Notes under the pieces: generated by a model | Databases searched by the model: none | What the model was told of the DNA's origin: nothing | The model's input: only the letters and a program-made list of their open reading frames with translations | Shown here: positions 52,638 to 63,766 of the stretch, piece by piece | Layout of the letters: every line of letters starts with the position of its first letter | Position numbering within the stretch: the stretch's first letter is position 1 | NCBI GenBank assembly: GCA_002011035.2 | Contig: MTLY02000001.1 | Location: 63,342-127,341 of the forward strand | Source: Candidatus Hecatella orcuttiae | GTDB lineage: Archaea > Thermoproteota > Bathyarchaeia > Hecatellales > Hecatellaceae | Reading direction: 5' to 3' | Length of the DNA: 64,000 bases | Made by a program: the position numbers and the translations under genes

Positions 52638-53735
52638 TTGGTCCTAGAAAAAGTCCAAGAAATACTGGATAAAGGGCTATGCCATTTATATTATGGCTTA
52701 TCCTTTCTCGCCGTATTAGCTCAAGAACTCTACAACTTGAAAGATCATAGGCAAATGAAAAGAGACTCTGCTTATAAAGAAGAGTACAAAGCAGTGAGAT
52801 TAGGGTTTAAACATAAACCCCAATTGGGCTTTTGCTCCTACCTACCGGATGTGCTCCATTACGGTGAAAAAATCATAAAACTCATCAGCAGCCTCAATGC
52901 AAGATGGCTTAGAACAGATTTCCCCTACTCTATGTTAGGCCGTGGAGAAAGCGGGGTTCTCCCCGTCGACGAGATCGTCGAGAAAGCTTATCGAGAAGGA
53001 ATCCAGCTTCTACCTATCCTAGGAACATGGACTGTAGGCAGACCGAAGCCGCCAAAAGATTCCAAGAATTTTCTGCAATATGTTGAAAAAATTGTCAGCA
53101 GATATAACGGCCGAATAGACAGCTACGAATTTTGGAACGAACCCAACTGCGTATGGTTTTGGAGAGACTCCGTGAACGGATTCTGTGAACTGATGGATTC
53201 AGCGGCTCGAAAGGTTAAGGAAGTTGATCCTAAAATTAAATTCGGGGTCAACATAGCTTGGCATTGGAGCCTCGGATGTTCTTGGGCGCTTAAATTCATT
53301 CGCGCTGTATCGAAAATAACCGGGTTAAGCCATGTTGACTTCATAGGGCTTCACGGATATCCCGGAACATGGGAAACGGGCAACGCGAATACATGGCGGA
53401 ACAGAATCCGGGAAACAAAAGAAACATTAAAAGCTCTAGGCCACGAGGATAAAGAAATATGGGTGACCGAATTTGGCTTTTACGCTTTCAAAAATAGATT
53501 GTTTTATCCCCATATTCCACGAAACCAAACTGAATATTTTCGAGAAGCTTTTAAAGCAATGGCGGAAGCGGAAGTTCCTGTTGCCATATGGTACTGTCTC
53601 CATGACCCTCTAACGTTTTCTAACTTTAACCTTCAAAGATTCACTTACCAAGAATTTGGATTTGGACTTTACACAAAAAATCTTAAACCAAAAGACCCTA
53701 TGGTAGTCGAGGTTATTCGAGAACTCGCGTCCTAG
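52638..53735 (+). CDS. clan GH-A (TIM-barrel, GH5/GH39-like) glycoside hydrolase
   Basis: 365-aa ORF. FWNEPN (acid/base Glu) and IWVTEFG (nucleophile Glu) motifs. Start uncertain. Confidence 0.6.
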   Translation: MVLEKVQEILDKGLCHLYYGLSFLAVLAQELYNLKDHRQMKRDSAYKEEYKAVRLGFKHKPQLGFCSYLPDVLHYGEKIIKLISSLNARWLRTDFPYSMLGRGESGVLPVDEIVEKAYREGIQLLPILGTWTVGRPKPPKDSKNFLQYVEKIVSRYNGRIDSYEFWNEPNCVWFWRDSVNGFCELMDSAARKVKEVDPKIKFGVNIAWHWSLGCSWALKFIRAVSKITGLSHVDFIGLHGYPGTWETGNANTWRNRIRETKETLKALGHEDKEIWVTEFGFYAFKNRLFYPHIPRNQTEYFREAFKAMAEAEVPVAIWYCLHDPLTFSNFNLQRFTYQEFGFGLYTKNLKPKDPMVVEVIRELAS

Positions 53736-55354
53736 CTGGCGGACTGAGCATATATAAAACCTGCGTTTCCACCTCCAAGTTCTACGTCGTATTTCAGAGG
53801 CTCCCTCTTCAGTTCATTCCAACGTATTTTAGAGCGACTTACCCAGCTGAACTTTCTGAGCAGACTCTTTGTGTAAATCCTCGTCCAGTCCAGTTGAACA
53901 TGGTCAGACCAGGCTTTGAAAATCCTTGGATCAATGTAGTTTTTCAGAGAAGTATTCAAATTATATTCTTTTGTAGCTTCCGCCATCTTCATGGCCAGCC
54001 GAAGCTTGGTAACCTTTTCCCTCCACCTTTCCAGCTGCTTCTCCGTTTTGGGATGCTGGGCTTCAGCCTTCGCCAACATCTCCCGCTTTTTTTCCATCGA
54101 TTTCTCCCATGTTGAGGGAGGAGTTCTTTTATGGTTTAAGGTTATAGCAGCCAAGAGGTTAGCGAGTCTAGCGTAGTAGATCCGGGTGGCTTCGTAGCCA
54201 TCGTTTAACTTGACGTTTCTGCTGAGATAGCCTCTGACTACGTCGGAGGCAATGAAAGTTCTGAAAACCTTAGCCGTTAAACCGGGCATAGCCTTGTTCA
54301 GAAAGCGATTCACTTGGGATGAACGTACCCCATCGAACACCTGATCACCCGGGCGCTTATCTTTCATCAATGATTTGAGGTTGTCGAGAAATTTCGGGTT
54401 TATCTTATTGACAGGGAGAGATTTATGCCATCGGACACTGTCTTTTCCGAGAAAATCAAACTCTACACTGCCACGGTTCAGGCGAATGTGCTCAACTCTG
54501 AGGGTTGACGCTCCGACGGTGTCCGCTTCATCCTCATCTTTCTCATCGCCAACCCTCATAGCTAAGGTGTCGATGAGGTAAGTCACCGTTGCTAATCTTC
54601 GCTCCTTCTCGTCGTGGGAAGATAGTTTTCTTTCTATGAAACGTCTGACCGAGTCTATCTTTGAAGAGAGACGTCGGGCTTTTTCGTACTTTTCTCTTTC
54701 CCTCTTCTGCTTCAGTGAAGACGTGTCAGAGAGCCAAACGTATTTCTCTTTACCCGAGAGTTTATCCACCCACTTAGCCAGCCACATGGAGTTGTGATCG
54801 TGCACAATGTCTTTCCATTCACCTTTCGGTATAGGGGCATCTTCTCCCAAGTTTAGGATGACATCTTGAGGGTAAATTCTAGGCTTCCACCTGCCTCGGA
54901 GGGGATGGTTGCCCCTTCCCATGAAGATGCCGGGGGGTTCCACCATCCAGTTGGCTACCTCTGTTTTCTTGCCGTTAACTTCAGCATAGCCGAACTTGGC
55001 TTTCAGCTCTTCTCTGCGCTTCTTTCTCTCAGCTGAGATTGCTTTTTTCTCCTCTTTACTCATGGTCAGCTTTCTGTTTTTCTCCTCGTCTACGTATCGG
55101 TAGAGCTCTGAAAAGTCAATGTCCTCAATGGTTATGCCGCGAAATTCGCGGCCGAGTTTTTCTGCGAAGTCGTGGACAAAATTCGCCGCGAATATTTCAT
55201 CTTTGACGTAGGGTGTATCTTTCTTTTTAGCCCAAGCGTAGGCCATTTCCTCCTGCTCAGGTGTGAGGGTGATTTTTTTGCCCTTGACGGTGATGGAGAA
55301 CGATTTCGGAATGTAGGGCTCGGGAAAAGCTACCCCGTTATGTTTTAAAGTCAC
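53732..55354 (-). CDS. eukaryote-type DNA topoisomerase IB
   Basis: 540 aa that aligns by eye along human TOP1. Matches are EPPGIFMGRGNHP, WKDIVHDHNSMWLAKW, TVGASTLRVEH, FLGKDSVRW, LTAKVFRTF, TLNHKR and SLKNYIDPRI (catalytic Tyr). Confidence 0.9.
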   Translation of the reverse strand: MTLKHNGVAFPEPYIPKSFSITVKGKKITLTPEQEEMAYAWAKKKDTPYVKDEIFAANFVHDFAEKLGREFRGITIEDIDFSELYRYVDEEKNRKLTMSKEEKKAISAERKKRREELKAKFGYAEVNGKKTEVANWMVEPPGIFMGRGNHPLRGRWKPRIYPQDVILNLGEDAPIPKGEWKDIVHDHNSMWLAKWVDKLSGKEKYVWLSDTSSLKQKREREKYEKARRLSSKIDSVRRFIERKLSSHDEKERRLATVTYLIDTLAMRVGDEKDEDEADTVGASTLRVEHIRLNRGSVEFDFLGKDSVRWHKSLPVNKINPKFLDNLKSLMKDKRPGDQVFDGVRSSQVNRFLNKAMPGLTAKVFRTFIASDVVRGYLSRNVKLNDGYEATRIYYARLANLLAAITLNHKRTPPSTWEKSMEKKREMLAKAEAQHPKTEKQLERWREKVTKLRLAMKMAEATKEYNLNTSLKNYIDPRIFKAWSDHVQLDWTRIYTKSLLRKFSWVSRSKIRWNELKREPLKYDVELGGGNAGFIYAQSAS

Positions 55355-55579
55355 CCACTTTCTCGCCGTTTTCCCCAGTCCACCTTCGCTTCCTTGCGCA
55401 GTAATATAGGCTCAAATGTTATCAACCTCTTTATTAGATTTAGCTCGAGCATGTCCTAAAGCAAATTCATGCCCACTAAGCCATGCATACAGCAGATGGA
55501 AACTTTACATACAGAAAAGTACGGGTGGATAAGAAGGCTGAATACTTTTTTTTACAGTAACACAAATTCGCTTCTGGAG

Positions 55580-55802: not shown

Positions 55803-56637
55803 TTAGGCTTTTCTTGTACGTAGAAAGCTGGTTATTACCTTAGCGGCTTCCTCCGGCTTTTCGAAGAAAATGGCATGTCCGCAGTTCTTTATCACCTTTA
55901 GTCGTGCTTGACGTATTTTTTCGCTGATGACTTTGCCTCCTCCACCTTTAGGTCCTTGCTCTAAGGGGATTATGAGATCGGCTTCGCCGGCTAGCACAAG
56001 CGTCGGCGCGTCTATACGGTGAAGTTGATCTATGATATTGAAGTTTGCCATGGCCTTGCAGGAGGATTTAAAGATTTCTGGAGTATTGTTCTCAGCAAAG
56101 ATCTTCTTTACTAGCTTTAACGCCTGAGGAGCCTCGTTGCTGTCGAGAAATCTTCAGGACAAAGCTTGAAGGGATGTAAGTTCAGATAGAGTTTCCAAGT
56201 TTACTCCCATTTTCTCCGCTACATCTCCCCAAACTTTGAATAACAGTTTTGTAGCTTCATCCATTTTGCATGCAGAGCAACTTATGATCAGCTTCTCAAG
56301 TTTTTCAGGGTACTTTAAGGCAAATTGCATAGCGACCATTCCTCCCATAGAAGCCCTGTGAACGTGGGTTCTAGGAATATTCAGAGCCTCCAGTAGGCCC
56401 TTAAGATCGTCGGCCCAAAGTTCTATGGAATATTCTTGCAAAGGTCTATCTGAAAGGCCGAACCCTCTCATGTCGTAATTCAATAATCTTAAACTTTTTT
56501 CGCAGCAAAGGAGTAATGGCTGCGAAGTGTTCATGGCCTAAGCCTAATCCATGAACTTGAACGAGGGTTTCTCCTTTTCCTTCGAACTCATACCATAAGT
56601 TAACCTCGTGCACTTTAATTTTCGGCATACGAATCAC
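55803..56637 (-). pseudogene. alpha/beta-fold hydrolase, disrupted by one frameshift and one in-frame TGA
   Basis: Three track ORFs (56446..56637, 56154..56534, 55803..56051) together form one alpha/beta hydrolase. The frame changes near 56470-56480. An in-frame TGA lies at 56154-56156. The nucleophile elbow reads RASMG rather than GxSxG. Confidence 0.7.
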
Positions 56638-63106: not shown

Positions 63107-63766
63107 CTACCGTCTCCCAGCCTCGCAGATTTCTCTTATTATTCTTACTCCCTCAGAGGCGTCCACAGCGTAGAAGTCGCACCCAATTTCCTCTGCCCAC
63201 TCTCTGTCCGTTGCTCCGCCTCCTATGATGGTTTTGACCTTCTCTCTAATTCCTGTCTCCTTCAATTTTTCTTCGATTATTTTTTGCTGAGGTCTTGAAG
63301 TTGTCAGAAGAGCTGAAGAAGCAACTATGTCGGCGTTAACTTCAGCAGCCTTTCTGGCGAAATTTTCAGCCGGCTGATCTATTCCGATGTCGTGGACTTC
63401 AAACCCTGAAGCCTCCAGTAGAGCTTTGACAATGTCTTTTCCTATGTTGTGAATGTCTCCTTTCACGGTTCCTATAACTATCACTCCTTTAGGTTTACCT
63501 GCCTCCGTTTTTGATTCCAGTATTTTCCGCTTAACTATTTCAACTCCTGCGATGCAGGCATTAGCCGCCAACATCAGCTCTGTCAAGAATATTTTTTCTT
63601 CACCGAAGAGGTTGCCGACCTCTGTGATGGCTTTAGCCAGCCCTTTGTTCATGACTTCTAGGGGGCTAAGTCCGCTTTCCAAAGCTTCCTTGACGAGTTT
63701 GGCCACGGCTTCTTCATCGTAGTCTAGAATGGCTTTTCGTATGGATTCAAAAAAATTAACAGCCAT
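63107..63766 (-). CDS. corrinoid (B12-binding) protein (copy 2)
   Basis: 219 aa with DxHxxG (GDIHNIGKDIV). Separated by 3 nt from the downstream MttB-like gene. Confidence 0.9.
   Translation of the reverse strand: MAVNFFESIRKAILDYDEEAVAKLVKEALESGLSPLEVMNKGLAKAITEVGNLFGEEKIFLTELMLAANACIAGVEIVKRKILESKTEAGKPKGVIVIGTVKGDIHNIGKDIVKALLEASGFEVHDIGIDQPAENFARKAAEVNADIVASSALLTTSRPQQKIIEEKLKETGIREKVKTIIGGGATDREWAEEIGCDFYAVDASEGVRIIREICEAGRR

Follow-up and report, generated by a model that had tools for sequence, protein, structure and literature searches.

The TopIB locus

We examined a 64,000-nucleotide stretch of contig MTLY02000001.1 from Candidatus Hecatella orcuttiae (positions 63,342 to 127,341 of the forward strand; hereafter the window), an archaeon that belongs to the Bathyarchaeia and not to the Thaumarchaeota. 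The minus strand of the window encodes a 540-residue protein that we confirm here to be a bona fide, full-length, long-form (eukaryote-type) topoisomerase IB (TopIB) of the archaeal subgroup. The gene and its parts are listed below in window coordinates.

53732..55354, minus strand: TopIB coding sequence, 540 codons plus a TAG stop, with a GTG start codon at 55354-55352 (from the list of open reading frames and the translation)
54731..55351, minus strand: CAP region, Pfam Topoisom_I_N (PF02919), residues 2-208; E 2.9e-68, 230 bits against a cut-off of 25; confidently modelled
54035..54724, minus strand: catalytic core (CAT), Pfam Topoisom_I (PF01028), residues 211-440; E 1.3e-72, 244 bits against a cut-off of 23.7
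53819..54019, minus strand: linker end and C-terminal domain, Pfam Topo_C_assoc (PF14370), residues 446-512; E 1.2e-19, 70 bits against a cut-off of 25.1
53735..53818, minus strand: lineage-specific C-terminal tail, residues 513-540, lacking a eukaryotic counterpart
55402..55409, minus strand: TATA-like element CTATATTA, 48-55 nt upstream of the start codon, read from the sequence

The GTG start is sound: alignments to homologues begin at residue 2, and the open frame, which spans 559 codons, offers no in-frame start codon further upstream. The TATA-like element is a possible candidate for an archaeal promoter element. Four of the five catalytic residues (R286, K304, R365 and H408) lie in the Topoisom_I region together with the beginning of a short coiled-coil linker, while the codon of the catalytic tyrosine, Y473, occupies 53936-53938 within the Topo_C_assoc part. 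The gene is present in a single copy in the genome (1.75 Mb, three contigs, ~97% complete).

Identity, catalytic residues and fold

A profile search against Pfam recovers the three eukaryote-type TOP1 domains in order, all well past their gathering cut-offs. Among solved structures the best match is CsTOP1 (also CsTopIB) of the archaeon Caldiarchaeum subterraneum (PDB 6z01; E 1.9e-190, query residues 2-524), and chains of human TOP1 come next (E 1e-93, query residues 3-505), bearing out the collinearity with the human core and C-terminal domains that the initial annotation had claimed. The five catalytic motifs that it named align exactly with the human ones. R286, K304, R365, H408 and Y473 are aligned with the motifs of both human TOP1 (R488, K532, R590, H632 and Y723 in the published numbering; PMC4824112) and CsTOP1, such that Y473 of the query corresponds to human Y723 and to CsTOP1 Y477. 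All five residues are invariant across 49 archaeal homologues.

An AlphaFold2 model built on the homologue alignment (mean predicted local distance difference test score, pLDDT, 90.6; predicted template modelling score 0.84) contains the bilobed CAP/CAT clamp, the coiled-coil linker and the C-terminal domain. The top Foldseek matches to this model are the CsTOP1 structures 6z03 and 6z01 (E 1e-55), followed by human TOP1 (1k4t, E 1e-42). The model adopts the closed-clamp form; its template modelling (TM) score is 0.79 against DNA-bound human TOP1 and 0.55 against open, apo CsTOP1. We also considered the short bacterial and poxviral TopIB class and rejected it. The short enzymes of D. radiodurans (2F4Q) and variola virus (2H7F) share the catalytic-core fold and chemistry with the query, but their class is ~300-350 residues long, with a small N-terminal domain, and lacks Topoisom_I_N and the linker; the query has 540 residues and carries Topoisom_I_N, and only its core matches them, weakly (E 1e-4 to 3e-6, query TM score ~0.3).

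CsTOP1 and human TOP1 provide the closest experimentally characterized points of reference. CsTOP1 (6Z01, 6Z03; PMC4824112, PMC8748870) belongs to the same length class (539 residues versus 540) and shares with the query, at ~55-57% identity, the three domains, the catalytic pentad, a short linker and the absence of a charged N-terminal domain. Query residue 3 aligns with position 18 of the human Topo70 chain, so the ~200-residue charged N-terminal domain of the eukaryotic enzyme is missing. The spacing between the catalytic histidine and tyrosine is 65 residues in the query and 91 in human TOP1 (from the published H632 and Y723), that is, 26 residues shorter, and a shorter linker is a published trait of archaeal TopIBs (PMC8748870, PMC4824112). 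Human TOP1 (Topo70; 1A36, 1K4T) is 33-36% identical to the query in the Foldseek comparison. Three further residues are conserved between the two by alignment, namely the Arg in GRGNHP, the Asp in FLGKDS and the Asn that precedes the catalytic tyrosine, positions that we take to be camptothecin contacts.

A search of NCBIfam with the TopIB protein matched no model. This gap may explain why clear TopIB orthologues (P0019, P0020, P0023, P0054 and P0057) are named 'hypothetical protein' in NCBI records.

The C-terminal tail

The initial annotation recognized no counterpart for the ~45 residues that follow the region of the catalytic tyrosine. This holds for residues 513-540 only; the remainder belongs to the shared architecture, since homology to eukaryotic TOP1 extends to about residue 505-512 as judged by Topo_C_assoc (446-512) and by the human alignment (to 505). 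Alignment with CsTOP1 persists to residue 524, beyond which the two tails are unrelated. Recognizable conservation of the ~28-residue tail, which human TOP1 lacks, is confined to the closest relatives (P0003 and L007). Order in the model extends to about residue 520, and over residues 526-540 the pLDDT drops below 50. CsTopIB has been described as having 'a small additional C-terminal domain' (PMC4824112); its residues 525-539 show little conservation and, being disordered, are not seen in the crystal structure (PMC8748870). The final ~15 residues of the query are likewise predicted to be disordered, so that a C-terminal extension with a disordered end would be common to both enzymes.

Proposed function

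Sequence, domains, catalytic residues, fold, phylogenetic placement, composition, genomic context and gene inventory are established directly; from these we infer, with high confidence, that the gene is a resident chromosomal one encoding an active, ATP-independent archaeal long-form TopIB, or 'swivelase'. Homology suggests that the CAP and CAT lobes clamp duplex DNA and that Tyr473, assisted by R286, K304, R365 and H408, cuts one strand to form a transient 3'-phosphotyrosyl link. Controlled rotation of the free DNA end could then release positive or negative supercoils without ATP, after which the nick would be resealed. The host genome, in which neither gyrase nor reverse gyrase was detected, also encodes one Topo IA and Topo VI, and the enzyme is expected to work beside them. 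CsTopIB relaxes supercoils of both signs through a 3'-phosphotyrosyl intermediate, needing neither ATP nor Mg, is thermostable and resists camptothecin (PMC4824112). The query enzyme is likely to be thermostable in the same way, and by the same analogy it is probably camptothecin-resistant, the sensitivity of human TOP1 being probably absent.

That the protein is instead catalytically dead or re-purposed, for example as a recombinase-like or purely DNA-binding protein, is very improbable. The extra C-terminal tail could be taken as a hint of such a change; against it stand the invariance of the five catalytic residues and their surrounding motifs, the complete clamp fold predicted with high confidence, and the fact that tyrosine recombinases match the model only at Foldseek E values above 0.01.

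Genomic setting

Over 7.6 kb, contig MTLX02000005.1 of assembly GCA_002009985.2 matches the window at 100% nucleotide identity; this assembly is JdFR-10, labelled 'Candidatus Bathyarchaeota archaeon'. JdFR-10 originates from subseafloor basement fluids of the Juan de Fuca Ridge flank, which are at ~60-65 °C (PMC5340873). The synonymous-codon score of the TopIB gene falls at the 48th percentile of the genome's 977 long ORFs, and its GC content of 0.473 at the 13th. The gene sits mid-contig, flanked by a GH39-like hydrolase, a GT2 glycosyltransferase, a split alpha/beta hydrolase and a dihydrolipoamide dehydrogenase, and no mobile-element genes adjoin it among the flanking genes inspected. Together with the domains and the trees described below, this typical codon usage and these ordinary archaeal flanks uphold the view that a eukaryote-type TopIB resides here in a native archaeal context.

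Two details of the surroundings may be recorded. The 3' end of the TopIB gene overlaps by 4 bp (53732-53735) the 3' end of the convergent GH39-like gene (52638-53735, plus strand). The alpha/beta hydrolase at 55803-56534 (minus strand) is split into ORFs of 126 and 82 residues that match positions 29-114 and 194-245 of the Abhydrolase_1 profile and leave the part between uncovered; it is probably a disrupted gene.

Phylogenetic placement and the origin of the gene

More than 8000 TopIB homologues were found. The closest named one comes from a Bathyarchaeota metagenome-assembled genome (MAG; 70-71% identity); proteins of Nitrososphaerota and Caldarchaeales come next (53-61%), and eukaryotic TOP1s are 36-43% identical. 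A scan of viral contigs returned only two matches, on IMG/VR contigs of giant-virus size (L090 and L091; 131 kb and 388 kb; 37-38% identity). Both viral TopIBs have long branches and fall outside the archaeal clade, at a position that cannot be relied on. Two trees were inferred with IQ-TREE under LG+C20, with support from the SH-like approximate likelihood ratio test (SH-aLRT); short bacterial and poxviral TopIBs (too divergent) and Asgard and bacterial long forms were omitted from them. In both trees the archaeal TopIBs, the query included, are monophyletic (SH-aLRT 99-100) and the eukaryotic ones form a separate group (100).

On this evidence it is exceedingly improbable that the gene came recently from a eukaryote or a giant virus by horizontal transfer, or that it is a contaminant of the bin. 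The protein has the domain architecture of the eukaryotic enzyme, and a long TopIB does occur on two giant-virus-sized contigs, but the eukaryotic and viral copies are only 36-43% identical to the query and stand apart from the archaeal clade, a placement by which we exclude such an origin. Codon usage is moreover typical of the genome, the gene lies mid-contig among ordinary archaeal genes, and the identical sequence from independent assemblies speaks against contamination. A eukaryotic or viral phylogeny, atypical codons or foreign flanks, which the initial annotation had named as grounds for refutation, were thus looked for, and the refutation failed.

Within the archaea the history of the gene is less straightforward. 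Bathyarchaeia sequences from 20 families form one main clade (support 100, stem 0.5), which includes the TopIB of G011, although G011 belongs to the same family as the query. The query itself joins G035 (L007; likewise of the host family), P0003 and P0005 in a separate clade (support 100) outside the main one, in the weakly supported basal region. A third lineage, comprising family f26 (L093-L095) and soil 'Bathyarchaeota' MAGs, is placed among the Nitrososphaerota. At least three distinct TopIB lineages therefore exist inside one GTDB class, two of them inside the host family, and TopIB is consequently not a clean vertical marker in this class. As a taxonomic marker for the contig, the role in which it had initially been cast, the gene points to the TACK/Thermoproteota neighbourhood and no finer, its tree being discordant with the taxonomy inside the host family.

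Two points keep strictly vertical descent within the host family from being established. The query TopIB does not group with that of its family-mate G011, and a synteny comparison with G011 and G035 found no shared neighbouring genes apart from TopIB itself. An alternative that we consider possible, although rather unlikely, is that the gene is an old xenologue, taken by the ancestor of two genera of the host family (g1 and g6) from another, Nitrososphaerota-like archaeal lineage and replacing or re-supplying the Bathyarchaeia-type gene. This would agree with the position of the query clade outside the fully supported clade that holds G011, and with an approximately unbiased (AU) test that rejects the query clade and G011 as a single clade (log-likelihood difference 210, p-AU 2e-55, for a grouping chosen after the tree had been seen). 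The query is also nearer to the Nitrososphaerota copies (53-61% identity) than to the main-clade members of its own class (46-56%), and genes flanking TopIB in G011 are 57-70% identical to their orthologues in G000, whereas its TopIB is only 51% identical. The missing synteny with G011 and G035 can be read in the same direction, although in itself it speaks neither for nor against orthology. On the other hand, no sampled donor group encloses the query clade, and the best tree places it as sister to the main Bathyarchaeia clade, albeit with a weak support of 35, an arrangement that fits vertical descent if the host family, which forms its own order in the sample, is deep-branching. The main-clade stem of 0.5 can account for the asymmetry in identity, the codon usage is native, and the G011 copy could equally be the transferred one. 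Deep vertical descent of the query clade is not rejected, and it is plausible because the sample contains no second family from the host's order.

Several unusual relatives came to light in the same searches. Long TopIBs in MAGs labelled Candidatus Aenigmatarchaeota (DPANN; L010, L026, L033, L034 and L042) are 53-56% identical to the query and form a tight clade among Nitrososphaerota sequences, which suggests mislabelled bins or transfer. A ~600-residue form from Bathyarchaeia families f8, f10, f11, f14 and f29 (L100, L101, L102, L104 and L108; clade support 100) carries ~89 extra K/R/E-rich residues in the coiled-coil linker, which thereby exceeds the human one. Four archaeal TopIBs of 949-988 residues contain intein/LAGLIDADG domains (PF14528, PF14890), and one protein of 972 residues is a TopIB fused to an aminotransferase class V domain (PF00266); all five are among P0121-P0124 and P0127.

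Topoisomerase complement and reverse gyrase

The companion topoisomerases, whose inventory the initial annotation had proposed, were sought in the host genome. It encodes one Topo IA (TIGR01057 topA_arch, 723 bits) and adjacent genes for Topo VI B and A; in this MAG (~97% complete) gyrase A was not found, and nothing scored above the cut-off for reverse gyrase. The host thus carries both type I families, unlike the first thaumarchaeal genomes, which lack Topo IA (PMC2621148). It differs from the host of CsTOP1, a member of the Aigarchaeota/Caldarchaeales, which possesses reverse gyrase.

Of 301 genomes sampled across the host class (G000-G300), 218 (72%) carry TopIB, as do 108 of the 151 of high quality. 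TopIB is strongly anticorrelated with reverse gyrase: it occurs in 7 of 43 genomes positive for that enzyme and in 211 of 258 that are negative; at the genus level the corresponding figures are 4 of 19 and 73 of 89. These counts are descriptive only, related genomes not being independent. In the host family (f1), reverse gyrase is missing from the three genera that have TopIB and present in the four that do not. Mutually exclusive distributions of this kind are seen repeatedly inside families f1, f7, f8 and f11; both enzymes are found together in f3, f10, f34 and G044. A 2021 review describes the same dichotomy for two species of Thaumarchaeota and does not mention Bathyarchaeota. We put forward only tentatively, as a possibility that falls well short of even chances, that TopIB and reverse gyrase are largely alternative solutions in the Bathyarchaeia, and that the JdFR-10-type TopIB of genera g1 and g6 is a separate deep lineage retained or re-acquired in a branch without reverse gyrase.

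Significance

The gene described here is an ordinary member of a family already known in archaea and does not represent a new kind of system. TopIB was reported from Thaumarchaeota in 2008 (PMC2621148) and from the Miscellaneous Crenarchaeotal Group (MCG), or Bathyarchaeota, in 2013 and 2015 (PMC3930316, PMC4571567), and an archaeal enzyme was assayed in 2016 (PMC4824112) and crystallized in 2022 (PMC8748870). The MCG sequences (fosmid 26B6, PMC3930316; single-cell amplified genomes, PMC4571567) come from the same host class and have the same long-form architecture as the query, and were placed on an archaeal branch beside Thaumarchaeota and Aigarchaeota. The statement that archaeal TopIB is restricted to some TACK lineages is dated, as an Asgard TOP1 has been reported (PMC8748870).

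Long-form archaeal TopIBs bear on the question of where eukaryotic TOP1 came from and are of value as thermostable model enzymes. To this our analysis adds modestly: the commonness of TopIB in the class (72%), its strong anticorrelation with reverse gyrase, and at least three lineages that caution against its use as a clean vertical marker. If the relationship with reverse gyrase is true and causal, gain and loss of TopIB would track shifts across a thermal boundary, together with exchange between lineages of a 'eukaryotic signature' gene.

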